From assembly GCA_021792255.1 (NCBI GenBank), contig JAJYUZ010000003.1, positions 64,001-128,000 on the forward strand: DNA of 64,000 nucleotides, in the 5' to 3' direction. A program made the translations under genes and the position numbers. This DNA comes from Thermoplasmata archaeon. Its GTDB lineage: Archaea; Thermoplasmatota; Thermoplasmata; Thermoplasmatales; GCA-001856825. The notes below the pieces were generated by a model, which saw only the letters and a list, made by a program, of their open reading frames with translations, did no database searches and was not told the origin of the DNA. How positions within the stretch are numbered: the first letter of the stretch is position 1; each line of letters starts with the position of its first letter. Below, piece by piece: positions 18,761 to 34,807 of this stretch.

Positions 18761-21346
18761 TCATCTGTTGTGATTGGAGATCGCCTCTTCCACGTCTTTT
18801 ATAGACAAATTTTCCTTTAAAACTTTCCCCTGCGAATAAGTGTCATTCCCCCCTCCTTTGACAAATCCATTCGCTTCTAGAATGTGCATTACGTCCAGGG
18901 CTGATATTTCTGGAAAAGAAGATGCGATCCTTATCTTGTCCTTCGAGAGCACAATGCCCGATGAGGACGACAAACTCTTAGAGACCGATTCTGCAATGGA
19001 TTCACTCACTTCGATAATTTTAAGCTCTTTGTTCTTGAACTTGACCTTGGAATACTCAAATCCAGATTCAATCGCCTTCTTGGTCTCTTCCATGCTCTGG
19101 GTCAGGGATTCGAGGACCTTAATTGGGTTTTCTCCCATCTTCTCTCTCATCTCATTAAGTTGGTTGCTTTGAGCGTTTGAAAACTCAACGGCAGATTTGC
19201 CAGCAGCAAAGCTGAACCGGATTATTCCGTCCTGGATTCTTTCCACCTTCACTACCTTGATGTACCCGACTTCACCTGTGAAATCGAGGTGTGTTCCTCC
19301 GCACCCCTCTGCATCGATTCCTGGAATTTCGACGAGCCTGAGCTTGTTCCCATTCGGGATTCCTCCCTGGTACAGGGTGAACCCAAAATTCGCCTCTGCG
19401 TCGTTCCTGTTGACGAACTCCTTGTGCAGGGGGAGGTTCAGTCTTATTATCCCGTTGGCTCTCTCTTCGATCTGGAAAATTTCGTCCTGCAAAATGTCCT
19501 TGAAATGGGTAACATCAAGCCGGCTAACTCTCTCATCCTTTTGAGCGCCTGCCTGCCATATGTGTGGTCCTAGCACGTCTCTGATTGAGGAGAGTAGGAT
19601 GTGGGTAGCGGTGTGGTTCTGCATAAGCCTCCACCGCCTGTCCGTAGATACTATTCCGTGAACAGTCTGTCCTATAGAAATGCCATCAGCATCATCTACT
19701 TCGTGAATGATCGTACCATCGACTATCTTCACGGCCTTCACGTCTACCTTCTTCCCGGAGGCAATCAGTACACCTTGATCTGACGGCTGCCCACCCCCTT
19801 CCGGATAAAAGTAGGTGTCTTCCAGGACTACCGAGCTTCCCTCTAACCCTATGACCTTGCTGTTGAATTCGAATATTCTTTCGTTTTCGTAATACGCCTT
19901 CCCAGTTTCTGGGTATTTCTTCTGCAAGATGTGCTCTTTTTCTTTAGGCTCTTTCCGGATGTTGGAAAACCCTTTGTTCTTCTCAAGCTTCTCCGGAAAT
20001 TTAATTTTTAGAGCGTCACACCTCTCCTTGACATATTCGATCGGCAACCCGTTAGATTCAAAGAGGAGAAGGACGTTTTCAGCACTTATCGCTCCACCCT
20101 TCGCATATTTTTTTATCATCCCGTCGCCTTTGCTTAGGAGTTCGTCAAATCGTTCTACTTCCAGCTTGACTATCTCTCTCGCTGAACTTTCGAGCCTGGT
20201 ATCGAGGATGTCCTTGAATCTTTCCTTCTGTCGATCGATCAGATCCCACAATTCCGTTTCTATCCCCAACTTTTTTCTTGAGAGCAGGGCCCGCCTTATC
20301 AGCATCCTTAGTACGTATCCAGCTTTCGAGTTGGATGGTACCAAACCGTCGAAGAGAAGAATGGTGATAGCGCGGGTGTGGTCTGCGAGGATGTACGTGT
20401 TCGACAGCTTATCTAGACTCTTTCGCTCGTTAGCATCGAGCGATCTCATAAATTCAACTTCGGAGCCATCTTCCATTGAATATGCATTTATGAACTCCCG
20501 GAGGAAATCCGGTCTGCCGAGCTTGATCTCGTGCAACAGGTCGGTCAACATCTTGGGATAGAGGGCTTCGTAAACGGTGTCTGTCCCCTGTGACAACCAC
20601 GTGAGCCTTTCTATGCCATATCCAGTATCCACGATCCTGTTGTCCATTTTCCTGTATCTTATTCCATCTATCTCGATGTCTCCTTCGGGGGTCTCGACCA
20701 TGTCCATAAAGACCAGAGTTGCTACCTCAAGCCCCCTCAACATGACCTCGAGGGAGGAGCCAGCATTCCCTCCTCCCGCCCAAGGTTTTTCCTTGAAGAC
20801 TATCTCTTCCTTCTTTACTCCCAAGTGTTGAAGAAATTTCACAGAAAGTTCGACCGTCTTGTCCTTCCAGTAGATCTCCTTTCCGGGAAAGTTAAAGGAC
20901 TTTGCACCTCCCATCTCAAATACGGATAGGTGCCGACCGGTCTTACCCACATTATCCAGATCGACGGTCCTTATGCAAGGCTGCGAGACTACTAGAGGAT
21001 TTCCCGGCGGGGGGACCTTCCCAGAAGTCACGTGAGGCTGGAAGTCGTAGATACTAGCGTTCACTAGGTAGACGTCCTCCCTCCATCTAGCGACTATTGG
21101 GTACCTCTTTATCCTCTTGTGACCCTGCTTCTCGAAGAATGAGAGAAACTCTTCCCTCATTTCCTCTAGTGAATACTTCTTTGAGGTCGGAGGATTGCCG
21201 ATGAACGAATAAGGATCGCAGGGAATCTCACCGCACGTCTCCCTCTTTTTATCTAGAGTCCAGAAAACCTTTCCACAACGAATGCAAGTTTTCCTCTGAT
21301 AATCGTTATCCTTTAAGTATTTGATAACCTCTTCTCGAGCTGGCAC
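18761..21346 (-). CDS. alaS: Alanine--tRNA ligase (archaeal type)
   Basis: N-terminal CxxC, 'ASIYDFQP', 'DTGYGIER', 'ADHTR', editing 'HTATH...CGGTH', C-terminal 'GGG'. Confidence 0.97.
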   Translation of the reverse strand: MPAREEVIKYLKDNDYQRKTCIRCGKVFWTLDKKRETCGEIPCDPYSFIGNPPTSKKYSLEEMREEFLSFFEKQGHKRIKRYPIVARWREDVYLVNASIYDFQPHVTSGKVPPPGNPLVVSQPCIRTVDLDNVGKTGRHLSVFEMGGAKSFNFPGKEIYWKDKTVELSVKFLQHLGVKKEEIVFKEKPWAGGGNAGSSLEVMLRGLEVATLVFMDMVETPEGDIEIDGIRYRKMDNRIVDTGYGIERLTWLSQGTDTVYEALYPKMLTDLLHEIKLGRPDFLREFINAYSMEDGSEVEFMRSLDANERKSLDKLSNTYILADHTRAITILLFDGLVPSNSKAGYVLRMLIRRALLSRKKLGIETELWDLIDRQKERFKDILDTRLESSAREIVKLEVERFDELLSKGDGMIKKYAKGGAISAENVLLLFESNGLPIEYVKERCDALKIKFPEKLEKNKGFSNIRKEPKEKEHILQKKYPETGKAYYENERIFEFNSKVIGLEGSSVVLEDTYFYPEGGGQPSDQGVLIASGKKVDVKAVKIVDGTIIHEVDDADGISIGQTVHGIVSTDRRWRLMQNHTATHILLSSIRDVLGPHIWQAGAQKDERVSRLDVTHFKDILQDEIFQIEERANGIIRLNLPLHKEFVNRNDAEANFGFTLYQGGIPNGNKLRLVEIPGIDAEGCGGTHLDFTGEVGYIKVVKVERIQDGIIRFSFAAGKSAVEFSNAQSNQLNEMREKMGENPIKVLESLTQSMEETKKAIESGFEYSKVKFKNKELKIIEVSESIAESVSKSLSSSSGIVLSKDKIRIASSFPEISALDVMHILEANGFVKGGGNDTYSQGKVLKENLSIKDVEEAISNHNR

Positions 21347-21392: not shown

Positions 21393-22115
21393 GTGCTAAT
21401 CACTCTTTACAACGACAGGGAACTTTACTCCTTCTCAAACAAGGCGGGCCTAATTTATGTTAGGGAGTTAGGAAACATAGAGACCGGTAAGTTCTCCGTA
21501 TCGTCGGAGGAACTGGAGATAGGGTCGAGAAAGTTCAGGACTAGGAAATCCTCTCTTGGCGACGTTTCGTCGTCCATAGAGAGAGGGCCTCAGATAGTTC
21601 TACCCAAAGATGTGAACCAGATCGGATTTGATCTGGACTTGCCGCTCAGTTCGAAATTACTCGAGATCGGAGGAGGTGCGGGAGGCTTTTCCATACTCGC
21701 AGCCCTCATGTACAAAGTGAAGATAGTGAGTTATGAACTCGATGAACAGTACTACACACTCCTGAAGAAAAACATCAACAGGTTTGAGGTAGGCGATTTG
21801 ATAGAGGCAAAGAATAGAGATGGCAGGGAGGCAGATTTCGATGAGTATGAAAGCATATTCATAGACAACCCCGAACCTTGGAATTTTTTGGACATCAAGC
21901 TTACTGGGGCAAAGAGAATCGCATCCATTCTGCCTACCTATTCGCAGGCAGAGAATTTTTCGCGTTTCCTCATAAAAAAGAATTTTTTAGTAAGTGTTCA
22001 TCAACTCATCGACGTCCCTATCAAGCTTAGCGCGATGGGAATGAGACCCGAAACATCGTTTCTGTATCACACCGGATTCATCGTTTCGGGGGTAGGTGTT
22101 GGATTGAATGGATGA
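21393..22115 (+). CDS. trmI: tRNA (adenine-N1)-methyltransferase TrmI-like
   Basis: 'RGPQIVLPKD', SAM motif 'LEIGGGAG', 'DNPEPW', 'HTGFIV'. Confidence 0.75.
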   Translation: MLITLYNDRELYSFSNKAGLIYVRELGNIETGKFSVSSEELEIGSRKFRTRKSSLGDVSSSIERGPQIVLPKDVNQIGFDLDLPLSSKLLEIGGGAGGFSILAALMYKVKIVSYELDEQYYTLLKKNINRFEVGDLIEAKNRDGREADFDEYESIFIDNPEPWNFLDIKLTGAKRIASILPTYSQAENFSRFLIKKNFLVSVHQLIDVPIKLSAMGMRPETSFLYHTGFIVSGVGVGLNG

Positions 22116-23046
22116 GGTTAAGAAGAAGGCATTAGAGAAACAGGGGTACAAGATAGTCGGAAACCATTCCGGTGTCAAACTATGCCACTGGATGAGGCAG
22201 TCCCTGTACTACAACAGGCCATGCTACAAGCAGACTTTCTACGGAATAGAGAGCCACAAGTGCGTGCAGATGACCCCATCTGTTGACTGGTGCTCCGAAA
22301 ACTGCACTTTTTGCTGGAGGGCTCAGGGATGGGAAGGGGCAAGAATTCCTCAGGAAGATGAAGCGGAGGATATCTTGGAAGGATCGATACAAGCTCAGAG
22401 ACTATTGCTCACAGGTTTCAAGGGGGATTCGAGGACCGACATGAAGAAGTGGCTCGACGCTCAGCAACCGAAGCACATGGCAATCTCTCTTACCGGAGAA
22501 CCGACGCTTTACGGTAAACTTGACGACCTGTTGAGCGAGGCAAAGAAGAGGGGAATTTCGACCTTCGTTGTGACGAATGGAACTGATCCGACTGCACTGG
22601 AAAAATTGAAGGTCCTCCCCACTCAACTCTACGTCACTGTCGCTGCTCCAAACAAGAAGTTGTTCAATGAGATCCTGAACCCGATCTACAAGGATGGCTG
22701 GGAAAGGCTAAACCAAACTCTGGAACTTCTGCCCTCTCTGAAGACCAGGACCGTGATAAGGCACACTCTCGTCAAGTCGTTCAACCTGGGATACATCGAA
22801 GAGTATTACAGACTTGACAAGAAAGCAGATCCTGATTTCATAGAGAATAAAGGATACGTTCACGTAGGAGGCTCAAGGAGCAGACTCACCATCAACAACA
22901 TGCCTTCCCACGAAGAGATAAGGGACTTCTCCTTTAGACTGAATGGTTACCTGAACTACGATTTTGGTGGGGAGAGGCAAGACTCGAGGATAGTTCTCCT
23001 GAGCAAAGACGTGAAGAAGAACATGATAGATTTCTCTGCAGTCTGA
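22108..23046 (+). CDS. taw1: 4-demethylwyosine synthase (radical SAM) Taw1
   Basis: 'HSGVKLCHW', 'CYKQTFYGIESHKC', CxxxCxxC (CSENCTFCWR), 'ISLTGEPTLY'. Confidence 0.96.
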   Translation: MDEVKKKALEKQGYKIVGNHSGVKLCHWMRQSLYYNRPCYKQTFYGIESHKCVQMTPSVDWCSENCTFCWRAQGWEGARIPQEDEAEDILEGSIQAQRLLLTGFKGDSRTDMKKWLDAQQPKHMAISLTGEPTLYGKLDDLLSEAKKRGISTFVVTNGTDPTALEKLKVLPTQLYVTVAAPNKKLFNEILNPIYKDGWERLNQTLELLPSLKTRTVIRHTLVKSFNLGYIEEYYRLDKKADPDFIENKGYVHVGGSRSRLTINNMPSHEEIRDFSFRLNGYLNYDFGGERQDSRIVLLSKDVKKNMIDFSAV

Positions 23047-23160
23047 ATCCGAATTTGGTTGTGCAAAAATTTTATGTGGTATACTAAATAGTCTCAACTA
23101 CGCTAAAGATTTATATCGTTTCAATCATTGAACCGACAACTAAGCGCACTGATGAGGTAT

Positions 23161-24876
23161 ATGAGTTCTGAGTATGTTAAACACGAAACGGATGTTCTCA
23201 TAATAGGGGCAGGAGGGGCAGGCATGAGAGCCGCAATCGCTGCGTTCGATTCTGGATCGAGCGTGACTATTCTCTCCAAGTCTCTACTGGGAAAAGCTCA
23301 CACCGTAATGGCTGAGGGAGGAATTGCAGCAGCACTCGCAAACGTGGATTCGAAAGACAATTGGGAGGTCCATTTTGCTGATACCATTGAGGAGGGAGTC
23401 TACATCTCAAATTATAGAATGGCCGAGATACTTGCAAAAGAGGCACCGGATAGGGTCAGAGAGCTGGAGGAATATGGTGCTCTCTTTGACAGGACTCCCG
23501 ATGGCACCATAATGCAGAGAGCTTTCGGTGCACACACCTATAGGAGACTGTGTCACGTCGGTGACAGGACCGGCCTCGAGATCATCAAGACGCTCGAAGA
23601 TCAGATCCTCCACAGGGACGTGAAGTTCTTCGACGAGATGTACGTCACCAAACTCCTGAAGGATGGAGATAGGGTAGTCGGAGCCATCGGTCTCAAACTC
23701 AATAACGGAGAATTTCACGTCTTCAATGCAAAGGCAGTGATTATCGCAACGGGAGGATGCGGGAGAGTGTACAAGGTCACCTCCAACTCCTGGGAATCCA
23801 CCGGAGATGGTCTTGGACTGGCATACGACGCCGGAACAGAACTCATGGACATGGAGATGATCCAGTTCCACCCTACCGGCATGGTTTTCCCACCCGGAGT
23901 CAAGGGACTACTGGTGACGGAAGGAGTCAGAGGAGAAGGGGGAATCCTGCTCAACGCAAAGGGAGAGAGGTTTATGGAACGTTACTCTCCGAAGAAAATG
24001 GAGCTGGATGCGAGAGACGTGGTTGCAAGGGCAAATTATGCAGAGATAATGGCGGGAAGAGGTACGGTTCATGGGGGCGTCTACCTTGACATCACTCACA
24101 AGGGAGCTGACTTCGTAAAGAAAAAGTTACCGAGCATGTACAAGCAGTACATGGATTTCGCAGGCGTCGACATTACTAAGGAAAAAATGGAAGTTGCACC
24201 GACGGTGCACTACCAAATGGGAGGAATACGCGTGGATCCGGAGACGACCTCGACAAATGTCCCGGGACTCTTTTCTTCTGGAGAAGTCGCGAGCGGACTT
24301 CACGGAGCTAACAGGCTCGGTGGAAATTCTCTGGCAGACATCCTGGTGTTCGGAAGGAGGAGCGGTGAAGGATCTTCAAGTTATGCCAAGAAAGCATCTT
24401 TCGGAAAACTGGACGAACCAACGATTATGTCGGAAATCCAGAGGGTCAAATCTTTCCTCGGGAAGAGTGGAACTAACCCCTACGACGTTGCATCGAAGCT
24501 GGAGGAAAACATGAGCGAAGGCGTCGGCATAATTCGCAACGAGGAGAGTCTCAAGAAGGTACTGGACGCGATTCTGGAACTGAGGCAGTCGGCAAAGCAG
24601 GTGAAGGTTCCGGGGACCCTAAAGTACAACAAGGGACTGTTGCAGGCACTCGAACTTCCGTTCATGCTGACCGCAGCCGAAGCAATCGTAAGAGGAGCTA
24701 TCGAAAGGAAAGAGAGCAGGGGAGCGCACGCAAGGAGCGACTATCCAAAGAAGAACCCCGCATTGAGAAAGAACATAATCTATTCAAAGGGCGAGAGTGG
24801 CATGAAAGTAGTGTGGAGAGATGTTCCGGTAATGCCAGAGAATTTGAGGAAACTGGTAAAGGAGGAGGATTACTGA
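23161..24876 (+). CDS. sdhA: Succinate dehydrogenase/fumarate reductase flavoprotein, mycobacterial Sdh1 (type F)-like
   Basis: Covalent-FAD motif 'GKAHTVMAEGG', 'HVGDRTGLE', 'QFHPTG', 'HGANRLGGNSL', 'ESRGAH'. Confidence 0.93.
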   Translation: MSSEYVKHETDVLIIGAGGAGMRAAIAAFDSGSSVTILSKSLLGKAHTVMAEGGIAAALANVDSKDNWEVHFADTIEEGVYISNYRMAEILAKEAPDRVRELEEYGALFDRTPDGTIMQRAFGAHTYRRLCHVGDRTGLEIIKTLEDQILHRDVKFFDEMYVTKLLKDGDRVVGAIGLKLNNGEFHVFNAKAVIIATGGCGRVYKVTSNSWESTGDGLGLAYDAGTELMDMEMIQFHPTGMVFPPGVKGLLVTEGVRGEGGILLNAKGERFMERYSPKKMELDARDVVARANYAEIMAGRGTVHGGVYLDITHKGADFVKKKLPSMYKQYMDFAGVDITKEKMEVAPTVHYQMGGIRVDPETTSTNVPGLFSSGEVASGLHGANRLGGNSLADILVFGRRSGEGSSSYAKKASFGKLDEPTIMSEIQRVKSFLGKSGTNPYDVASKLEENMSEGVGIIRNEESLKKVLDAILELRQSAKQVKVPGTLKYNKGLLQALELPFMLTAAEAIVRGAIERKESRGAHARSDYPKKNPALRKNIIYSKGESGMKVVWRDVPVMPENLRKLVKEEDY

Positions 24877-25625
24877 TGGATACAATCACGGTGAGTGTGT
24901 ACAGGCACGATCCCTCTTCAGAAAAGGAGGGGAGATTTGTGGATTACGACGTCCCAGTCGAAGAAGGAATGGTCGTCCTGGATGCGATGAAGTACATCGA
25001 AAGGCACATAGATCCCAGCCTTTCACTGAGGTGGAATTGCATGGCAGGAAAGTGTGGTTCGTGTTCTGCAGAGATCAATTACAAACCTTCCCTAATGTGC
25101 AAGGCCAGGGTTGATTCATTCAAGGGTGCAAAGATCAGGGTCACCCCCATGGCAGCTTTCCCACTGATAAAAGATCTAGCGACTGACGTCTCCGAAAATT
25201 GGGAACTCCTGAAGAAGATCCCAAAATTCACCCCGAAAGAAGGGTTAGAGAAACCGTGGAAGATATCTCAACAGGACATAGAGAGGTCTAAGGAATTCAA
25301 GAAGTGCATCGAGTGTTTTCTGTGCCAGGACGTGTGTCACGTTATTAGAGAGCACCATTCCGGTTACTTTGGGCCACGACACGTGGTCAAGGCCGCTTCA
25401 TTGGACATGCACCCGCTCGATGCTCTCAACAGAGCTGAGTTCATGAACAAGGACGCCGGACTCGGCTACTGTAACATCACCAAGTGCTGTACAGAAGTCT
25501 GTCCGGAGGAGATTCACATAACAGATAATGCAATAATTCCCGAGAAGGAGAGAGCGGTCAACTTATTCTACGATCCTCTTGCGATTCTCGTGAGATCGAG
25601 GAGAAACAGGAGTGGGAAGAAATGA
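24876..25625 (+). CDS. sdhB: Succinate dehydrogenase iron-sulfur subunit, Sdh1 (type F)-like
   Basis: 'RWNCMAGKCGSCSAEIN', 'CIECFLCQDVCHV', 'GLGYCNITKCCTEVCP...ITDNAIIP'. TGATG overlap with sdhA. Confidence 0.92.
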   Translation: MDTITVSVYRHDPSSEKEGRFVDYDVPVEEGMVVLDAMKYIERHIDPSLSLRWNCMAGKCGSCSAEINYKPSLMCKARVDSFKGAKIRVTPMAAFPLIKDLATDVSENWELLKKIPKFTPKEGLEKPWKISQQDIERSKEFKKCIECFLCQDVCHVIREHHSGYFGPRHVVKAASLDMHPLDALNRAEFMNKDAGLGYCNITKCCTEVCPEEIHITDNAIIPEKERAVNLFYDPLAILVRSRRNRSGKK

Positions 25626-26341
25626 GGGCCGCAAGCGAATCTACTCTCAAGCACATAATACCGCCAGAATTTCTTGAACCAAACTGGAGGTTCTGGTCAT
25701 TCGTTTTCATTTCAATCCTCGGTTCGATACTGATTGTGCTGTACAAAGTCCCCGTATACGATGGACTGACTGATCCATTCTACACTCCCACTGTCTTGAT
25801 CCTCCCACTGGTGGTACTGTTCAGATTGACTTGCTATGCTTACAGGAAGGACTATCACAGGCACCTATTCCACCATCCGAACAGCTGCACTACCGATGTT
25901 CGTTTGGACACAAACAAGAGAGGATACAGCGGAGAAACTGGATTCTTTAGAATTGAGAATGCACACAGATACTTCATGTACACGGCGTGGTTCATTCTGC
26001 CGTTCTTCTATTACGATATCTATTACTCAATCGTTTACACCGGCGCAATCACCTTGAGTCTGGGAACGATAATCCTTACGGTAAATGCACTTGCTGTGAC
26101 TGCGTATACTTTCTCGTGCCACTCGGTCAGGCATTTGATCGGTGGATACAAAGACTGCGTGAACTGTCCTGCGAACAATAACAAGAAGAATTCTCTTTAC
26201 CGGTTCCAATCAAAGCTCAACGGACATCACGAACAGATAGCCTGGACAAGTCTGATTATGTTTGTGTTTGTGGATCTATTCATTAGAGGGATGATAGCTG
26301 GAATCGTTCCGAACATCATTCTCCTTCACGGAGGGCTGTAA
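25622..26341 (+). CDS. Type F SDH membrane anchor (Rv0249c-like, predicted Rieske-type [2Fe-2S])
   Basis: 'PFY', 'FRLTCYAYRK', 'YSGET', 'ENAHRYF', 'SCHSVRH', 'LNGHHEQIAW'. Translationally coupled to sdhB. Confidence 0.85.
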   Translation: MRAASESTLKHIIPPEFLEPNWRFWSFVFISILGSILIVLYKVPVYDGLTDPFYTPTVLILPLVVLFRLTCYAYRKDYHRHLFHHPNSCTTDVRLDTNKRGYSGETGFFRIENAHRYFMYTAWFILPFFYYDIYYSIVYTGAITLSLGTIILTVNALAVTAYTFSCHSVRHLIGGYKDCVNCPANNNKKNSLYRFQSKLNGHHEQIAWTSLIMFVFVDLFIRGMIAGIVPNIILLHGGL

Positions 26342-26344
26342 CCG

Positions 26345-26515
26345 ATGATGAAAATTCTGCCGACTCGTTACAAATATCCTCTCTTCTTTCTAGGGATCCT
26401 TATGATGGAAATCGCAGGAGTACTCTTCAAAGTGACAGACGTAGGAAGAGTTGGAATCGAAAGCATCGTCGTAGTAGGGTTCATAGTGTTCGCTTTTTCG
26501 ATCATTGCCACCTGA
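26345..26515 (+). CDS. Small two-TM membrane protein (56 aa)
   Basis: Own translation MMKILPTRYKYPLFFLGILMMEIAGVLFKVTDVGRVGIESIVVVGFIVFAFSIIAT*. GGAGG SD, starts 3 bp after the anchor stop. Confidence 0.7.
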   Translation: MMKILPTRYKYPLFFLGILMMEIAGVLFKVTDVGRVGIESIVVVGFIVFAFSIIAT

Positions 26516-26642
26516 TCCGGATCAGATGAGGGAGAATTTGACTATTTTTCATTAAAAATATAATTTAAGCGTACTTAATTCCATTCTTCTATAAAAACTG
26601 AGAATTTTTATAGCGTCATGAACTTCCTTATTGGAGATCTAT

Positions 26643-28358
26643 TTGGTCGAAGTCTTTGATTACGATTTAGTGATAGTAGGTTCCGGACTGGCGGGTCTTC
26701 GAGCCGCGATCGAAGCAGCCAGAATTGGCAAGGGAAAGTTACGGATTGCCATAATTGCAAAAAACCAACTGATGCGACCCCACTCTATTTCTGCAGAAGG
26801 AGGGTCTGCTGCAGTTCTCTACATGGATGAAGGTGATTCTTTCGACCTTCACGCTTACGATACGATAAAAGGGTCAGACTATTTGTGCGACCAGGACGTC
26901 GTAGAATTTTTTGTTCGGCAGTGTCCGATAGATATTCTAGAGCTTGAACACTGGGGAATTCCGTGGGCAAGGAGAAATGACGGAAGAATCGCACAACGAC
27001 CATTCGGAGGACACTCGTACCCGAGAGCGACTTTTGCAGCTGACAGGACTGGATTCTACGAAATTCACACTCTGTACGACACTCTTCTGAAATATGATAA
27101 TGTAGACAAATTTCACGAACAATTCGTGTACGATTTCCTGATCGAAAACAACAGGTTTAGAGGAGTTGTAGCGTTCGATATTCCGACCGGACAGATCCGA
27201 ATTTTCAAAGCAAGAGCTGGAATCGTTGCGACAGGTGGTCTTGGAAGACTGTATGGATACACCACCTATTCTCACCTAGTCACGGGAGATGGGTTGGCAA
27301 TAGCTCTCAGAAGAGGTATGAAACTGAAGGATATAGAATTCGTTCAGTTCCATCCAACCGGACTGGTACCATCCGGAATTCTGATCACAGAAGGAGTCAG
27401 GGGCGACGGTGGCATACTAAGGAACGCGAAAGGAGAAAGATTCATGGAAAAGTATGCGCCTACCAAGAAAGACCTCGCACCAAGGGACATCGTTTCCAGA
27501 AGTATGATGACAGAGATACTTGAAGGAAGAGGATTCAAGGGACCGGGTGGACTTGACTACCTCTTATTGGATTTCTCACCAATTGGTGCCGAGAAGATAA
27601 AGGAAAAACTCTCTCAAGTAAGGGAAATAGGGGCCCACTACGTCGGGATAGATCCCCTAGATTCGCCGCTTCCCGTTAGACCTTCTGCACACTACACAAT
27701 GGGTGGAATAGACGTGACTCATACTGGATTCACTGGAGTCACCGGTCTGTGGGCAGCAGGCGAGACCGCGTGCCTTTCCATTCACGGATCGAACAGACTC
27801 GGTGCGAATTCCACCAGCGAGTGCGTCGTCTTCGGAAAGGTTGCAGGTGAAGATTCAGCAAAGTGGCTCTTGACCAATAGCAACTCGGTCGATCTTTCAG
27901 AAGGGGACAAAAAATATGCGGAGAATTTTCTTGCCGACGCTTACAGAGACAAAGGAGACTACGATCCATACGAGATAAAGAGAGAGTTGTGGACAACGAT
28001 GGACAAGGACGCATACGTTTTCAGAAACGAAAATGGACTTACTGAGGGATTGAAAATTATTCGGGGTTTAATCGAGAAGAGTGGAAAAATATCGATCTCA
28101 GAGAAGGGGAATGTGTACAACCAGAATCTGATCGCATCCTTAGAAATGAAAAATCTCGTCGAGCTTGCGGAAGTAGTGGTGAAGGGTGCTCTCGAGAGAA
28201 AAGAGAGCAGGGGCTCTCACTTCAGAACCGACTATCCAACGAGGGATGACGACAATTACCTCAAGCACACAATTGCCCGGAGAGCGGATGGTGCATTGAA
28301 TATCAGTTACGTTCCAGTCACGTTAACAAAGTGGAAACCGGAACCGAGGGTATATTGA
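26643..28358 (+). CDS. sdhA: Succinate dehydrogenase flavoprotein (second, archaeal heme-b type complex)
   Basis: '[11 protein letters not shown]', 'QFHPTG', 'HYTMGG', '[10 protein letters not shown]', ends 'EPRVY'. TTG start after GGAG. Confidence 0.95.
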
Positions 28359-28367
28359 GGTGAAAAG

Positions 28368-28817
28368 ATGACGATCGAAAATAAGAAAGGGTGGATTTCG
28401 TGGTTCAACCCGTTCAAGTACGGGACGGACAGGTGGATGTACGCCCTCCACAGACTCACCGGAATCGTGCTTGGAGTTTACCTGATGTTCCACGTAGTAG
28501 AGACCTCTAGAATCCTGGAAGGTGCTGTTACCTGGAACAGCCTAATGGTCTGGCTCGATTATCCTTTTGGTCCTCACTTCGGTCCGTTGATACTCTCCGC
28601 AGTTCTGCTGGCAGCCGTATATCACGCACTTAATGGCCTGCGCCTTACGATAGTCGAGAACGGTCTGATGCTTCCGAAACCTTACAGGCCGGAATATCCT
28701 TACAAGCCCAGATCACTAAGAGGATTGAACAATTTCCTAAAGATCTTCCTCGGATTCTTCATGATCGCAATCAGTGCAGTCGGCATAATCTACATCTTTA
28801 CGGGGGCGATTCTGTGA
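28368..28817 (+). CDS. sdhC: Succinate dehydrogenase cytochrome b subunit C
   Basis: 'LHRLTG', 'FHVV', 'YHALNGLR' heme-ligand motifs, 3 TM. Confidence 0.9.
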   Translation: MTIENKKGWISWFNPFKYGTDRWMYALHRLTGIVLGVYLMFHVVETSRILEGAVTWNSLMVWLDYPFGPHFGPLILSAVLLAAVYHALNGLRLTIVENGLMLPKPYRPEYPYKPRSLRGLNNFLKIFLGFFMIAISAVGIIYIFTGAIL

Positions 28818-29215
28818 GAGAGTCTCAGATAATGTTCATTCAGTACATGACCGGATTACTCATCCTGGTATTCGGTTCGTTCCATTTTCTACTGATAAGC
28901 GCTCTTGCCCCTACCACAGATAAAGTTCTTTACAGCTACACCTACCTTAACGGCATCCGCACCCTTGCCGGAGGAACTCTGTACTATTCCACCGTGAAGG
29001 CCGTGTATACTTCACTGATGTGGGGATCCGTTTTCGAACTGCTCCTCACTTTTCTTGTATTCCATATATTCAACGGATTCAGAGTAATACTATCCGAACA
29101 GTTTCCCGGAAGCAAGGCTGAGAAGATCATCACCTATTCGGTGCTGATCGCTGCGATGATAGTTTTCATCTGGGGATCAAGGACGATTGTACTAATGTTG
29201 AATGGAGGTCTCTAA
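28814..29215 (+). CDS. sdhD: Succinate dehydrogenase membrane anchor subunit D
   Basis: 'QYMTG', 'FHF', 'FHIFNGFRVIL.E', 3 TM. Confidence 0.88.
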   Translation: MRESQIMFIQYMTGLLILVFGSFHFLLISALAPTTDKVLYSYTYLNGIRTLAGGTLYYSTVKAVYTSLMWGSVFELLLTFLVFHIFNGFRVILSEQFPGSKAEKIITYSVLIAAMIVFIWGSRTIVLMLNGGL

Positions 29216-29216
29216 T

Positions 29217-30020
29217 ATGCAGGAAATCGCACTGAAAGGATTTGGAGAGGTTGTCAAGACTGTCACGTTCAGAGTCAAGAGATACAGCCCCGAAAATGCG
29301 GATATGCCGAGGTACATGGAATACAAAGTCCCGGTCCAGAGGGGAATGACCATACTCGACGGAATACTCTACATCAAGGAACATCTGGACCACTCACTTT
29401 CGGCCCGTTACTCCTGCAGAATGGGAATCTGCGGATCGTGCGGCATGATCATAAACGGAAAGGAGAAACTTGCGTGCCAGACCCAGATACTCGAGCTCGG
29501 CAAGGATCTGATCAAGGTGGATCCTATGGGAAACTACGAAATTGTGAAGGATCTGGTCCCCGATCTCTCGAAACTCTTCAGAAACCATCAAAAGGTAAAA
29601 CCATACGTGCTGAGGGAGGAGGAATCTCCAACCAGTGAATACCTTCAAACTCCAGAACAGCGGGAAGAATATGCGATGTTTACCGATTGCATTCTCTGTG
29701 GAATGTGCCTGTCGGCATGCCCTACGAACGCAGCCGACGAGCTCTACCTCGGTCCGCAAGCTCTCGCTCAGGGATTCAGGTACATCTCAGACAACAGAGA
29801 CCTGGGATTCGAGGAGAGGTTGAACGTTCTGGATTCAAAACACGGCGTCTGGAGATGCCACTTTTCTGGAGCCTGTTCAGAGGTATGCCCCAAGGGAGTA
29901 GACCCAGCACTGGGCATTCAACTGCTGCGGCAACTCCTGACTGAAAACATATTCGTCAAACATAAACAGAAGGGTACGACAAGAGGTCCGGAGAGAAAGT
30001 CGGCATCGGGAGTTTCCTGA
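29217..30020 (+). CDS. sdhB: Succinate dehydrogenase iron-sulfur subunit (second)
   Basis: 'SCRMGICGSCGM...LAC', 'CILCGMCLSACP', 'CHFSGACSEVCP'. Confidence 0.95.
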   Translation: MQEIALKGFGEVVKTVTFRVKRYSPENADMPRYMEYKVPVQRGMTILDGILYIKEHLDHSLSARYSCRMGICGSCGMIINGKEKLACQTQILELGKDLIKVDPMGNYEIVKDLVPDLSKLFRNHQKVKPYVLREEESPTSEYLQTPEQREEYAMFTDCILCGMCLSACPTNAADELYLGPQALAQGFRYISDNRDLGFEERLNVLDSKHGVWRCHFSGACSEVCPKGVDPALGIQLLRQLLTENIFVKHKQKGTTRGPERKSASGVS

Positions 30021-30081: not shown

Positions 30082-30453
30082 ATGAGCATGACCCCTGAGT
30101 TGGCTGCCCTTGCTCTGGCAGTCATTATTGTACCTATAATCATTGCGATACTGCTCGGAACTGCGCACCACTTTTCTCCAAAGTCTTACGGAAAATATAC
30201 TCACGACAATTACGAGTGCGGTGAAGTAGCTTTGGGTGACTTCCAGTCGCCTTTGCCTCTGCAGTATTTCTTCTTCATGATGGCTTTCGTCGTTTTCGAC
30301 GTTGACTTCATTCTTCTTCTTCCCTGGGCAGGATACGTCAAGGCGCTTGGGACTGGAGTCTTCCTCGATGTGGTTCTGTTTATCGCCATAATGCTTGGTG
30401 GACTGTTCTACGCATCGAAGAAAGGATACATGAGGTGGTCGAGTGTCGGATAA
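30082..30453 (+). CDS. nuoA: Complex I-like subunit A
   Basis: 'YECGE', 'FVVFDVD...LLPWA', 3 TM. Confidence 0.93.
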
Positions 30454-30901
30454 TATTCTGGTCACAACTCTGGATGAAGCACTCAAGTGGGGAACCGGAA
30501 AATCGCTGTGGCCTTTTACGTTCGGACTTGCCTGCTGTGCTATAGAAATGATGAGTGCAATGGGTTCGGATTATGACTGGGCGAGATTTGGTTCTGACGT
30601 TTTCAGGGATTCACCAAGGCACTCAGACCTCATGATCGTTTCAGGAACCGTCACCAAAAAAATGGCTCCAAGAATCCGGAGACTTTATGATCAAATGGCC
30701 TTTCCAAAGTTCGTTATCTCTATGGGAGCTTGCGCTTCCGCAGGTGGCCCCTACGTCAGAGGATATTCTGTTGTGGATGGAGTAGATCAGGTCGTGCCGG
30801 TCGATGTGTACGTGTTCGGTTGCCCCCCGAGACCTGAAGCACTGATACAGGCCCTCAAGATGCTTCAGGACAGAATCGTTGCGGGGAAGGTGAAACATTG
30901 A
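30443..30901 (+). CDS. nuoB: Complex I-like subunit B
   Basis: 'GLACCAIEM', 'SMGACA', 'GCPPRPEA'. Confidence 0.96.
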
Positions 30902-31353
30902 TACAAATCGAAAGCGAATCCTCGACCAAGAACGGGACAAGGATCGTTTACGTTTCAAAGGACAACGTTTTACCCTTCTTGAAGGAGAAAAAGGAGGAAG
31001 GTTTCGATACCCTCCTGATGGTATCCGGGGTCGATTATAAGGATCATCTAGAGGTGATCTATCACCTCCTCTCTTCAACAAACAACTCCAGACTGATAGT
31101 CAAGGCAAAGACGGACGATGAGGTCGAGTCCGTTACCTCTCTCTGGAAGGGAGCAAACTGGCACGAGAGAGAAACCTGGGACCTAGTGGGAATCAAGTTC
31201 AAGAATCATCCCAACCTGACAAGAATACTTCTCGCAGAGGGATGGGTCGGTCACCCTTTGAGGAAGAATTATCCTATGGAGAAGAAGCAGTTCGTCAACC
31301 TGGCAGAAGACGGTGAAGACAGAGTCTCTTTTGAAAATACGGAGGGGTACTGA
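30898..31353 (+). CDS. nuoC: Complex I-like subunit C
   Basis: '[13 protein letters not shown]...HPNL.RILL...GHPLRK'. Confidence 0.94.
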
Positions 31354-31354
31354 A

Positions 31355-32461
31355 ATGGAAGACAAGATTATCGAAGTGAACTTTGGGCCCCAGCATCCTT
31401 CCACACATGGTGTACTTAGAATCAAGGTGAAACTGGACGGCGAAATAATAGTAGAAGCTCAGCCAATTATAGGATACCTTCACAGAAATGCAGAGAAGCT
31501 TGCAGAAATGGGAGCATATCCGAAAGGGATGGTCTATATCGACAGACTGGACTACGTAGCTGCCCTCAATATGGAACTTGGTCACGTATTGTCCATAGAG
31601 AACCTGATGGACGTCCAGGTACCAGAGAGAGCACTCTGGATCAGGATTCTCATGGTAGAACTGAACAGGATTGCCTCGCACCTCATATGGCTCGGAACTC
31701 ACGGGTTGGACATGGGAATGCTCACCCCTTTCTTCTACTGTTTCAGGGAGAGGGAGAGAATACTGAGAATCTTCGACGAGATAACGGGTAGCAGACTCCT
31801 CTACAACTACTTTGCAATAGGGGGGGTTTACTCCGATGTCACCCCAAAATCTATCGAAATGATCAAGGAATGGACTGAAGATTTCGTCGATAAGTTGGAA
31901 GAAATACAGGCGATCCTCGGCAAGAGCTACATTTACGTCAGCAGGACGAGAGGGGTAGGAAAATTATCTCCCGAGGATGTGCTGTCGTACGGAGTCACTG
32001 GCCCGATGCAGAGGGCCTCTGGCATAAAGAGAGACCTCAGAAAGGATTCTCCTTACTTATTCTATGAAAAGATAAATTTTGAAATTCCCACCAGAACCGA
32101 GGGAGACGTGTACGCGAGATTCCTCGTCAGAGTGGAAGAGATGAGACAGAGCGCGAGAATAGTGAAACAAGTGCTCGAGAAGTTACCCCAAGGGGATTTC
32201 TACAACAAGAAGTATTCTAAACCGATGCTCGTGAGGCTCAAAGCAACTGGTGAGTCATACGTTCCGACGGAGTCTCCAAAAGGAGAGTTCGGCATCTACC
32301 TAATCGGCGACGGCTCCTCCATCCCGTACAGAGTAAGGATTAGGAGTCCGAGCTTTGCAAACCTTTCCTCAATACCCACGATGCTCAAGGGATACAAGAT
32401 AGCGGACCTTACGGCAGCCGTCAGTTCGGCAGATCCGGTGTTCGGTGAGGTGGATAGATGA
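31355..32461 (+). CDS. nuoD: Complex I-like subunit D
   Basis: 'GPQHPSTHGVLR', 'DRLDY', ends 'GEVDR'. No NiFe CxxC motifs. Confidence 0.96.
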   Translation: MEDKIIEVNFGPQHPSTHGVLRIKVKLDGEIIVEAQPIIGYLHRNAEKLAEMGAYPKGMVYIDRLDYVAALNMELGHVLSIENLMDVQVPERALWIRILMVELNRIASHLIWLGTHGLDMGMLTPFFYCFRERERILRIFDEITGSRLLYNYFAIGGVYSDVTPKSIEMIKEWTEDFVDKLEEIQAILGKSYIYVSRTRGVGKLSPEDVLSYGVTGPMQRASGIKRDLRKDSPYLFYEKINFEIPTRTEGDVYARFLVRVEEMRQSARIVKQVLEKLPQGDFYNKKYSKPMLVRLKATGESYVPTESPKGEFGIYLIGDGSSIPYRVRIRSPSFANLSSIPTMLKGYKIADLTAAVSSADPVFGEVDR

Positions 32462-33537
32462 ACCTATTCTTCTTCCTGATGAGTATCCTGTATGGAATAG
32501 TGAAGTTCCTTCACATCAATTTTATTCCCTTCACTTATCAGGGAGTGCCCGTAGGAATCTGGATTGCTTATTTCATCGTAGCTACGATCGAAGTGGTTCT
32601 CGTATTCGCGTTCGCAATGCTGGCAGTAATCGTGATCATCTATGTCTTCAGAAAATACATGGCCGACGCGCAGAACAGAATAGGCCCGAACAGGGTTGGG
32701 CCCTGGGGTACGCTACAACTGATAGCAGATGTGTTCAAACTCATCCAGAAGCAGGATATAATTCCAACCGCCGCGGACAGAACTGCGTTCTTGGTCGCAC
32801 CATATCTTGTGTTCACTCCTGTCGTTCTTGGTTTCATCCTCATCCCGTTCGGCAGTGTTTCGATACTGAATCTGATGGTCGTGAATTTCAACTATACTAT
32901 TCTCTTTTTGATCGCTTTTATGACGATTGCACCGGTCGGTGAGATAATCGGAGGGCTTGCGTCTCACAACAAATTCTCCCTGTACGGTGCACTGAGATCG
33001 GCAGCACAGGACGTCGGTTTTGAAGTTCCAATGCTGATATCGCTCATTTCCGTCATAGTGCTCGCAGGAAGCTATAATGCAAACGACATAGTGACTGCGC
33101 AGAGAATAGTTCCATTTATCGTTCCGGAGATCCTGGGATTCATCGTTTTCTTCTTGGCAATGATAGGAAGACAGTCGATCCCCCCGTTCGACCTACCAGA
33201 AAGCGGAAGCGAACTGGTGAGTGGATTTTCGACGGAGTACAGCGGGATGAGGTACGGAATATTCTACATGGCAAATTTTGGCTTCATGGCGCTGGCTTCC
33301 TTTGTGGTAGCCGTTATCTACCTAGGAGGGTGGGAGGGACCCATATTTCCCGGAACCATCTGGCTTGTAATCAAGGGAGCAGTTTTCATTTTCATATTCC
33401 TATTGACGTGGATATCTCTGGGTAGAGTGAGGATAGATCACCTGCTCAATATCGGGTGGAAGTATCTTCTTCCGCTTAGCATAATCAACCTGCTGATAAG
33501 TGCGGGCATTGCGCTATACTTTGGAGGTGTATTTTAA
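32458..33537 (+). CDS. nuoH: Complex I-like subunit H
   Basis: 'QNRIGPNRVGP.G.LQ.IAD..K', 'PFDLPE...ELVSGF.TEYSG'. Confidence 0.95.
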   Translation: MNLFFFLMSILYGIVKFLHINFIPFTYQGVPVGIWIAYFIVATIEVVLVFAFAMLAVIVIIYVFRKYMADAQNRIGPNRVGPWGTLQLIADVFKLIQKQDIIPTAADRTAFLVAPYLVFTPVVLGFILIPFGSVSILNLMVVNFNYTILFLIAFMTIAPVGEIIGGLASHNKFSLYGALRSAAQDVGFEVPMLISLISVIVLAGSYNANDIVTAQRIVPFIVPEILGFIVFFLAMIGRQSIPPFDLPESGSELVSGFSTEYSGMRYGIFYMANFGFMALASFVVAVIYLGGWEGPIFPGTIWLVIKGAVFIFIFLLTWISLGRVRIDHLLNIGWKYLLPLSIINLLISAGIALYFGGVF

Positions 33538-34011
33538 GTGTCAGATGCAGAAAAAATCCCAGGACCCATACAAGGAATTGCTGGGATTGTGAAGGGCATC
33601 TGGACCGTGTTCATGGAAGGCTTCAAACCGAAGGTGACGAGGCAGGTCCCGGAAGAGAAGTTGGAATATCCGGCCAGGACGACGGGGAGAGTTTTCCTGA
33701 ACGTTGAGAGCTGCATAGGCTGTACTCTCTGTGAGCAGATTTGCCCCAACGGTACAATCAGGATGGTGGATTTCCATCACGACAAGAAACAGGAATTCGA
33801 AAAGAAATATCCCAACAGGCGGGAGATCTATCCGAGCGTGGACGTGTCTACTTGCATCCACTGCAACCTGTGCGAAGAGATATGCCCTACTGGAGCAATA
33901 ACTCTCGAGGCAGATGTGGAAGAGGTTCACTTCAAGAGAAAAAATACTAGGTACACGCCCGAACAACTTCAAAAGAAAGAAGTTGAGCTATGGGGGGAGG
34001 AGAGGGAGTGA
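33538..34011 (+). CDS. nuoI: Complex I-like subunit I
   Basis: Two CxxCxxCxxxCP motifs. Confidence 0.93.
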   Translation: MSDAEKIPGPIQGIAGIVKGIWTVFMEGFKPKVTRQVPEEKLEYPARTTGRVFLNVESCIGCTLCEQICPNGTIRMVDFHHDKKQEFEKKYPNRREIYPSVDVSTCIHCNLCEEICPTGAITLEADVEEVHFKRKNTRYTPEQLQKKEVELWGEERE

Positions 34012-34250
34012 TCGTCTTTTACATTCTTTCAATTTTGGCTATTGCTGCAGCAATGTTAGCTGCCTCCAGCAAGAATCTCCTTCACTCGACCCTGTGGTTG
34101 ACCTTCCTCGTGGTCGATGTAGCAGGCATATTCTTCTATCTCGAGAACTACTTTATTTCTGCAATTCAAGTGCTGGTCTACGCAGGTGCGATTATAACCC
34201 TGATTCTAACGTCTGTAATGCTCTCAAGGAGGTATCAAGATGAGGAGTAA
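34008..34250 (+). CDS. nuoJ: Complex I-like subunit J, N-terminal half (split NuoJ)
   Basis: 'NLLHS.L.L', 'IQVLVYAGAI'. GTG start after GGAGG. Confidence 0.88.
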   Translation: MIVFYILSILAIAAAMLAASSKNLLHSTLWLTFLVVDVAGIFFYLENYFISAIQVLVYAGAIITLILTSVMLSRRYQDEE

Positions 34251-34479
34251 GTTTGCTGTCGTGCTTTCGATCCTGCTCTTCCTTATCATGATAACGTTCA
34301 TACAGTTCGGCTCATTCCCGAACGGAACCATTCCCGTTAACACCGGAACTCCTGGAAGTCCCGGAATAACCCAGTCGCTGTTCACCATCTACCTGCTTCC
34401 ATTCGAGATCGTCACTTTCCTTCTGGTAGCGGCCATGCTTGGTGCGATGTATCTGGGTGAGAGGGGTGAGAACAGATGA
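34240..34479 (+). CDS. nuoJ: Complex I-like subunit J, C-terminal half (split NuoJ)
   Basis: 'LFTIYLLPFEI...LLVAAMLGA'. Own GGAGGT SD. Confidence 0.88.
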   Translation: MRSKFAVVLSILLFLIMITFIQFGSFPNGTIPVNTGTPGSPGITQSLFTIYLLPFEIVTFLLVAAMLGAMYLGERGENR

Positions 34480-34805
34480 ATCTTTCGAGCTTAATCTCCG
34501 CTCCCATGAACATAGGAGTCGTCGAATTTCTATCGATAGCAATACTTGCCATCGGCATCTATTCATTCCTGAGCTCGAGGACTGTCGTCAAGGCCCTTAT
34601 CTCCGTCGAGATCATGGTGAACGCCGGACTGATCAACCTGATCGGCGCTTCTAGCTACTACGGTAACGCAGCCGGTGCAGACATGACCCTGTTCGTTCTC
34701 GTAATCGCCGCAGCAGAAACCGTCGTCGCAATGGCACTGTTTGTCGCCGTCTTCCGTAAAAAGGGATCGGCCGGACTAGACGTCCTTAAACTCTTGAGGT
34801 GGTAA
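34476..34805 (+). CDS. nuoK: Complex I-like subunit K
   Basis: 'SVEIMVNA', 'IAAAETVV', ends 'LLRW'. Confidence 0.93.
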   Translation: MNLSSLISAPMNIGVVEFLSIAILAIGIYSFLSSRTVVKALISVEIMVNAGLINLIGASSYYGNAAGADMTLFVLVIAAAETVVAMALFVAVFRKKGSAGLDVLKLLRW

Positions 34806-34807
34806 AA

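Follow-up and report, generated by a model that had tools for sequence, protein, structure and literature searches.

Four overlapping or abutting genes (23128/23161-26515, plus strand) in a 64,000-nucleotide stretch of a Thermoplasmata archaeon genome very probably specify a respiratory complex II of the heme-free type F, a member of the succinate:quinone oxidoreductase family. The stretch, hereafter the window, covers positions 64,001 to 128,000 of contig JAJYUZ010000003.1 (assembly GCA_021792255.1), and coordinates below are counted from its first nucleotide. Three of the gene products are homologous to the subunits SdhA, SdhB and SdhC of Mycobacterium smegmatis Sdh1, the membrane anchor shares the fold of its mycobacterial counterpart, and the cluster ligand positions and the iron-sulfur (Fe-S) cysteine motifs are conserved. 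In the enzyme that we propose, SdhA would oxidise succinate at its flavin adenine dinucleotide, and electrons would then travel along the SdhB clusters ([2Fe-2S], [4Fe-4S] and [3Fe-4S]) to a Rieske-type [2Fe-2S] cluster in the five-helix anchor, held by H115, H203 and two invariant cysteines. The last acceptor would be a quinone lodged between the beginning of helix III and the C-terminal tyrosine of SdhB, in a YDP motif. Cofactor binding, catalytic direction and the choice of quinone are what we infer from the sequence.

Searched against all Protein Data Bank (PDB) sequences, the 239-residue anchor gave a single significant match, the M. smegmatis Sdh1 anchor (7d6v_C, E = 4.1e-23, residues 52-232 against 94-269). 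It matches no Pfam family at E <= 0.01, and hence no heme-anchored family of type A or C, and has no match in NCBIfam. SdhC2 and SdhD2, encoded by a neighbouring complex II operon, both have a Pfam Sdh_cyt match, whereas the anchor has none. The earlier note on this DNA, made by reading the sequence, had seen no SdhC/D heme motifs in the third gene; the lack of an Sdh_cyt match is indirect evidence for an anchor predicted to be free of heme. An AlphaFold (AF2) model of the anchor was built on a 64-sequence alignment, a single-sequence run having been discarded (mean predicted local distance difference test score, pLDDT, 50.9). The model (pLDDT 83, predicted template modelling score 0.80) has five long helices, at residues 22-40, 60-82, 111-138, 147-173 and 203-225. 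When it was used as a Foldseek query, a single PDB chain was recovered at E <= 0.001, again 7d6v_C (E = 1.1e-8, template modelling scores 0.70/0.64). The M. smegmatis Sdh1 anchor is itself described as a five-helix protein (Zhou et al. 2021, PMC8054011). By sequence and model alike, the window anchor is homologous to Sdh1 SdhC and is a single polypeptide with five predicted transmembrane helices.

The two other subunits lead to the same relative. SdhA contains the Pfam domains FAD_binding_2 and Succ_DH_flav_C, and its best PDB match is 7d6v_A (574 bits, E = 2e-171), with 6lum_A as runner-up (442 bits). SdhB matches 7d6v_B best (272 bits, E = 3.4e-80; the next chain scores 88 bits), and in the alignment with that chain it keeps the Fe-S cluster motifs and, in its YDP motif, a tyrosine equivalent to Tyr-B236. 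SdhB also passes the NCBIfam model NF009052 (325 bits for a cut-off of 256), a cut-off that is reached in none of 14 control genomes. The best NCBIfam family of SdhA is NF005866, with a match split in two stretches and a score of 754 bits; this being below the cut-off of 819, SdhA is not an equivalog under the NCBI rule. Its second-best family is the archaeal thiol:fumarate reductase TfrA (649 bits). Phylogenetic trees, described below, place both proteins in the type F clade, and on these sequence comparisons we assign SdhA and SdhB to the Sdh1 lineage. The earlier note had called them Sdh1-like and the whole complex type F. Both statements hold, as the three subunits and the anchor model are all closest to chains of M. 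smegmatis Sdh1.

In M. smegmatis Sdh1, a Rieske-type [2Fe-2S] cluster lies inside the five-helix anchor and is bound by two histidines and two cysteines (PMC8054011). His-C155 and His-C240 are named as ligands, and their mutation abolished quinone reduction (Zhou et al. 2021, PMC8054011). Aligned with 7d6v_C, H115 of the window anchor pairs with residue 155 and H203 with residue 240. The cysteines appear in the main text of that paper in the phrase "two histidine and cysteine residues", which leaves their positions unnumbered (PMC8054011). Three cysteines, C71, C89 and C166, are invariant across the anchor family. The invariant set was R68, C71, E105, H115, R116, C166 and H203 in an alignment of 44 sequences (A2), and the same set plus C89 in an alignment of 64 (A3). 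C71, H115, C166 and H203 are present in all 118 archaeal-like full-length anchors; among 85 diverse representatives they are found in 78, 80, 80 and 64 cases respectively, with 12 alignment gaps at H203. These are the four ligands that the earlier note had put forward. Its histidines do align with the Sdh1 ligands; as for its cysteines, C71 and C166 are invariant, but so is C89. C71 and C166, which both lie in helices, are most likely the ligating pair, and since all three cysteines are kept, whichever pair serves is present.

The quinone site of M. smegmatis Sdh1 is located between the beginning of helix III and the SdhB C-terminus (PMC8054011). It is formed by Tyr-B236, Phe-C147, Ile-C150, Leu-C151 as well as Ile-C154, and the observed pose of ubiquinone-1 is called a possible leaving state (PMC8054011). 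Phe147 corresponds to F108 in the window anchor, Ile150 to Arg110, Leu151 to an isoleucine and Ile154 to an alanine: of the four anchor contacts, one is identical, two are conservatively changed and one is an Ile to Arg replacement.

A further set of residues, H85, C89, C179 and C182, is also invariant in the 118 archaeal-like anchors (about 25874-26167 in the window) and may form an extra metal or disulfide site. If formed, the site may lie in cytoplasmic loops and be one that the only solved structure does not have. We considered whether it could be an essential second metal site. This idea is weakened by the CxxC motif (C179, C182), which only some half of the wider family has (of 85 sequences, 43 and 36 for the two cysteines) and which varies among the Thermoplasmatota loci with an anchor-A-B gene order. 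It is weakened too by position 85, which varies outside the archaeal clade, and by C89, near-universal irrespective of CxxC.

The fourth gene, an open reading frame (ORF) of 56 codons at 26345-26515, is absent from the earlier note. It encodes two hydrophobic stretches and the motifs RYPLFF.G and GF..F..S. Relatives of the window anchor were scanned for in one genome per species, and the gene-order and small-ORF counts that follow refer to the best 80 of the 174 stretches found. A hidden Markov model of the archaeal small-ORF homologs matched in 78 of these 80 external archaeal loci, on the same strand and directly after the anchor; in the two misses the contig ends 61 and 44 nucleotides (nt) past the anchor match. 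In other loci, no more than about 25 nt lie between the predicted start and the anchor stop. The median ratio of nonsynonymous to synonymous substitution rates among close relatives was 0.14 (33 computable pairs of 66, with synonymous sites saturated in half of the pairs), which indicates a coding gene under purifying selection. It belongs to no Pfam family, and neither membrane protein has an NCBIfam model. Its 65 database relatives, wherever named, are archaeal, and are annotated "hypothetical protein" or, in two JGI entries, with a DUF1212 label. No cysteine or histidine is conserved in the homolog alignment, and the protein therefore would have no cofactor role.

The small ORF stays with the anchor gene in seven loci that have no adjacent sdhAB and in two where sdhAB is divergent. 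Four of the seven stand-apart genomes were checked: all four hold elsewhere a type F SdhB that passes the cut-off, and SdhA adjoins this distant SdhB in five of the six loci fetched from them. The stand-apart loci (L043, L065, L067, L070, L071, L073, L075) and the divergent ones (L064, L072) come from Nitrososphaerota-labelled and unclassified archaeal genomes. Gene linkage thus suggests that the anchor and the small protein form one membrane module, and we give about an even chance to the small protein being a fourth, structural subunit of it. The chance that it is no subunit, and instead an unrelated membrane protein of small size, or a factor in assembly or stability, travelling with the anchor gene, we put a little short of even. 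The solved M. smegmatis enzyme functions with three subunits (PMC8054011), the 159 bacterial loci and 19 archaeal loci with the anchor-A-B order all gave no small-ORF homolog, and the lack of conserved Cys or His is also compatible with such a role. On the other side, every informative locus, in at least five archaeal phyla, has the small ORF linked to the anchor; the linkage persists when sdhAB move away, and the gap to the anchor stop is 3 nt in the window. A precedent exists for a small additional anchor subunit, SdhF of M. smegmatis Sdh2 (PMC10238741). Prediction of a complex between the anchor (alignment A1) and the small protein (A4) gave run scores of 0.47, 0.04 and 0.01, with no folded controls, and counts neither way.

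The operon, for which the earlier note knew of no characterised archaeal example, is not a singular archaeal case. The scan of species-representative genomes gave 174 stretches, some such anchors are already named "succinate dehydrogenase" by NCBI, and a second type F lineage occurs in 104 of 301 Thermoplasmatota genomes. By label, 78 of the best 80 stretches are archaeal (33 Thermoplasmatota, 26 Micrarchaeota, 6 Nitrososphaerota, 5 Marsarchaeota, with 8 others) and two are bacterial, on contigs of 5.2 and 2.6 kb; almost all are from acidophilic archaea. Cultured carriers are Oxyplasma meridianum and a Micrarchaeum co-culture strain, both from the genome scan, and Thermogymnomonas acidicola, from a protein search. 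Of 40 relatives in the window's own order, 14 have the anchor, the majority being in its genus (11 of 17), and several genomes of that order that are 99% complete gave no match. A literature search found no paper stating the archaeal distribution of type F, which may nevertheless already be in print.

Gene order separates the archaeal loci from the bacterial ones. The order A-B-anchor, which the earlier note had read correctly in the window, is seen in 69 of the 80 archaeal loci; the remainder are two loci cut by contig ends and the nine with non-adjacent or divergent sdhAB mentioned above. In 159 bacterial loci, it is never seen: 143 are anchor-A-B and 16 are cut short. The wider anchor family is a large one, numbering 659 representatives at 50% identity; bacterial-type anchors gave at least 600 matches in each of two genome scans. 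Bacterial carriers are spread over many phyla, among them Actinomycetota, Rokubacteria, Methylomirabilota, Dormibacterota, Chloroflexota and Acidobacteriota. The same 50%-identity library holds one full-length representative of the archaeal group above 42% identity (P0029, 60%), its other high-identity entries being short fragments. Within Thermoplasmatota, the anchor was found in 116 of 301 genomes: 10 close relatives, including the window's genome, 104 distant ones (31-44% identity) and 2 weak matches that are probably spurious. The distant form is near-universal in some families (47/47, 22/23, 8/8 and 7/8) and was not found in others (0/15 and 0/12). All 19 distant loci that were fetched (L249-L266, L268) are anchor-A-B with no small ORF, and keep the four ligand positions, with one exception that has masked bases.

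Some record labels look at odds with gene content (L015, L040, L020, L191). Two short contigs labelled as bacterial hold the archaeal four-gene layout, a "Methanothrix" bin has a Micrarchaeota-like operon, and the anchor in a "Nitrosotalea" bin is Rokubacteria-like (73% identical to P0158). Errors in binning are probable here, with transfer as the other possibility.

Two trees of SdhA and SdhB were computed, each with 59 rows, by a quick IQ-TREE search, and rooted with the second complex II on a long branch. Type F forms one clade in both (100% support in the Shimodaira-Hasegawa-like approximate likelihood ratio test), parted from the second complex II by a branch of 2.5-2.6 changes per column. 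The archaea with the A-B-anchor order fall into a single, weakly supported group (80, then 56), inside which phyla are intermixed; this group, sequences of Dormibacterota and Armatimonadota, and the main bacterial clade meet in one unresolved polytomy. The main bacterial clade encloses the Thermoplasmatota that have the anchor-A-B order (nodes 96 and 100). Forcing all archaeal rows into a single clade costs 104.3 log-likelihood units and is rejected (approximately unbiased test, p-AU 0.000256; the constraint was chosen after viewing the tree), which implies at least two separate archaeal histories and at least one interdomain transfer.

For the window itself, a probable acquisition from bacteria, as the earlier note had it, is not borne out: its clade lies deep in type F, within the polytomy of both trees. 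Because the distribution is patchy and crosses phyla among acidophiles, it points to lateral transfer between archaea. We find it somewhat unlikely that the A-B-anchor clade is instead an old archaeal type F lineage, even one near the origin of the type and not a recent bacterial import. Its place at the base of type F, inside no bacterial group in either tree, would fit such an age, as would its span of several archaeal phyla and the archaeal second-best family of SdhA, TfrA. However, the anchors of the clade are all at least about 48% identical, with P0029 as the sole full-length library representative above 42%, and being so alike they make the clade look young. The mixing of phyla and the patchiness within the window's order also speak for lateral spread, bacterial diversity is far larger (the 659 representatives), and the root of type F depends on one long-branched outgroup.

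Returning to lateral spread between archaea, and to the small ORF, we tentatively advance a broader proposal, to which we give somewhat less than an even chance. The enzymes of acidophilic archaea would constitute a four-subunit sub-class of type F, in which the anchor and a 56-residue two-helix subunit provide seven helices, and which may have a further metal or redox site at H85/C89/C179/C182; the membrane part would be a laterally spread module, encodable apart from sdhAB. If this is true, the membrane pair is a module of its own, encoded apart from sdhAB in Nitrososphaerota-labelled genomes.

Downstream of the small ORF, and 290 nt past the stop of the type F anchor gene (115 nt past the small ORF), begins a second, complete complex II operon, sdhA2-C2-D2-B2 (Table 1), with a heme-type anchor. 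Pfam Sdh_cyt matches both SdhC2 and SdhD2. SdhA2 has 6lum_A as its best PDB match, SdhC2 matches 6lum_C only (E = 1.7e-5, three histidines aligned), and SdhD2 has no PDB match. As the two operons adjoin, the cell would have two complex II enzymes, as mycobacteria do; the mycobacterial Sdh1/Sdh2 pair is at separate loci (PMC13332983). The tandem arrangement is common only to loci L001-L012 and L027, which are the nearest to the window. In five further Thermoplasmata loci (L016, L017, L028, L031, L045), a different second complex II, in A-B-C order, is placed upstream instead.

Such a pair of side-by-side operons suggests a division of labour, in which the type F enzyme would run as a quinol:fumarate reductase and the heme-type complex II would be the succinate dehydrogenase of the tricarboxylic acid cycle. 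We regard this as unlikely. The motif position that is glutamate in the fumarate reductase of Escherichia coli is glutamine in its succinate dehydrogenase. SdhA has a glutamate there (HTVMAEGG), but so does SdhA2, and the residue does not discriminate between the two. Micrarchaeota carriers are described as microaerobic or anaerobic (PMC5864196), in line with fumarate reduction. However, the activity assayed for the one characterised type F enzyme was that of a succinate:quinone reductase (Zhou 2021, PMC8054011), and mycobacterial Sdh1 and Sdh2 showed no fumarate reductase activity under hypoxia, according to a 2026 paper citing earlier work (PMC13332983). Direction is not fixed by sequence alone.

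Several points weigh against a type F enzyme as we propose it. SdhA scores under the NF005866 cut-off (754 against 819 bits). Three cysteines are invariant in the anchor, and the main text of the structural paper does not number the ligating ones. The proposed four-residue site comes from alignment, not from distances in the anchor model, and the loops of that model that carry C89, C179 and C182 have low pLDDT (54-72). One of the four ubiquinone-1 contacts in the anchor is identical (Phe147), and Ile150 is replaced by Arg110. Gene linkage alone ties the small ORF to the complex. Finally, we found no reports on cofactors, activity or expression for archaeal members. A degenerate anchor, lacking the Rieske cluster and having no cofactor or another such as heme, a mere membrane dock, would fit the wide variation in cofactor content among complex II anchors (review PMC10238741) and otherwise draws only on the absence of direct data, but it is very improbable, as both histidine positions and all three invariant cysteines are kept in 118 of 118 archaeal-like sequences, the sole deviant fetched has masked bases, and such invariance is unexpected at an empty site.

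All motifs and residue numbers quoted in the earlier note were present in the ORFs and translations of the window: GKAHTVMAEGG and HVGDRTGLE in SdhA, RWNCMAGKCGSCSAEIN and GLGYCNITKCCTEVCP in SdhB, and, in the anchor, C71 (FRLTCY), H115 (NAHRY), C166 (SCHS) and H203 (NGHHE), with exact numbering. Its sdhA start, ATG 23161, is residue 12 of the longest ORF. The choice of a start was guided by the usual geometry of archaeal promoters: the TATA-like box upstream of sdhA makes ATG 23152 or 23161 likelier than TTG 23128, and so suggests translation from one of the two ATG codons. For sdhB, the longest ORF opens at GTG 24813, inside sdhA (24813-24875), and homologs as well as PDB and NCBIfam alignments favour ATG 24876. 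The spacer after the small ORF probably separates the type F operon from the one that follows.

Table 1. Features of the type F complex II locus and its downstream neighbours (window coordinates).
Feature	Position	Strand	Description
TATA-like box tttatat	23110-23116	+	upstream of sdhA; sequence reading
sdhA	23128-24876	+	longest ORF 582 aa; likely start ATG 23152 or 23161
sdhB	24876-25625	+	249 aa; ATG overlaps sdhA stop by 1 nt
Predicted type F membrane anchor (SdhC-like)	25622-26341	+	239 aa, five predicted transmembrane helices; ATGA start overlaps sdhB stop
Conserved small ORF	26345-26515	+	56 aa, two hydrophobic helices; begins 3 nt past anchor stop
Intergenic spacer with T-run and TATA-like boxes	26516-26630	+	sequence reading
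sdhA2-C2-D2-B2	26631-28358, 28368-28817, 28814-29215, 29202-30020	+	heme-type anchor, Pfam Sdh_cyt
nuo cluster	30082-39518		nuoA, B, C, D, H, I, a 0.8-kb unannotated stretch and three antiporter-like Proton_antipo_M subunits
aa, amino acids.

The nuo cluster comes directly after the two complex II operons, and no nuoEFG-like gene was seen in its examined part; it would be of the 11-subunit type, and the window holds a respiratory gene island. Upstream, at 22108-23046, lies a radical-SAM wyosine-formation gene (Pfam Wyosine_form and Radical_SAM), of a kind typical of archaea. Also upstream, a minus-strand ORF of 861 codons at 18761-21346 is, from a reading of its sequence, a putative alanyl-tRNA synthetase.

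Among complex II classes, type F has had the least study: a single structure is available, and attention to it has not gone beyond mycobacteria. It is very widespread, with at least two separate archaeal lineages. Genome papers on acid-mine archaea mention missing or doubtful succinate dehydrogenase anchor genes (Yelton 2013, PMC3750248), and E-plasma, which is said there to lack SdhD (PMC3750248), carries the full four-gene set (L060). The type F anchor and the small ORF probably fill part of this gap, and Pfam and NCBIfam models exist for neither of these membrane proteins. For small, dependent archaea, Micrarchaeota among them, it may be of importance that the anchor is free of heme. As cultured carriers exist, the predicted Rieske centre and the candidate extra subunit are directly testable.

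Compared with known systems, the window operon is closest to M. smegmatis Sdh1 (type F; 7D6V, 7D6X; PMC8054011), whose chains are the best PDB matches of all three homologous subunits. The five-helix fold of the anchor, the histidine positions, the three cysteines, the SdhB motifs and the quinone-site tyrosine are all kept. The window anchor has 239 residues where the mycobacterial one has 283, its N-terminus and the loop that joins helices I and II being shorter, and SdhA is about 50 residues shorter, with its NF005866 match in two stretches. The gene order is A-B-anchor in the window and anchor-A-B in Sdh1, and the 56-residue membrane ORF after the anchor is an addition; the three-subunit composition and the anchor-A-B order, from which the window departs, are features of the solved example rather than a definition of the class. 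H85 and the CxxC motif (C179, C182), invariant in the archaeal clade, are absent from the mycobacterial chain, which in turn has a second cysteine in SCHSC, two residues after the conserved histidine. The quinone-contact residue Ile150 is an arginine in the window.

The bacterial-like type F enzymes of other Thermoplasmatota (L249-L266, L268) belong to the same phylum, have type F A, B and anchor genes and keep the four ligand positions. They differ from the window in being anchor-A-B, in having no small ORF, in their anchors (256-312 residues, 33-41% identity) and in nesting in the main bacterial clade. M. smegmatis Sdh2 (type A, 6LUM) resembles the window's second operon by the SdhA2 and SdhC2 matches, so that the pairing of a type F with a type A-like enzyme is as in mycobacteria, where, unlike in the window, the two operons are not adjacent. 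The anchor of type A consists of two three-helix, heme-binding subunits. The SdhF subunit of Sdh2, a single-pass protein of 3 kDa with no detected relation to the 56-residue ORF, is a precedent for a tiny membrane subunit (PMC10238741). The type E, "non-classical" complex II of Sulfolobales (SdhABEF) is likewise archaeal with a heme-free anchor, where Fe-S and metal centres replace heme (PMC10238741). Its anchors are described as amphipathic and peripheral, with Zn and [4Fe-4S], and the part of the review concerned with them reports no structure (PMC10238741), whereas the window anchor is predicted to be an integral five-helix protein. Set beside the solved enzyme, the window is new in belonging to an archaeal sub-family that has a separate operon layout and may have a fourth subunit.

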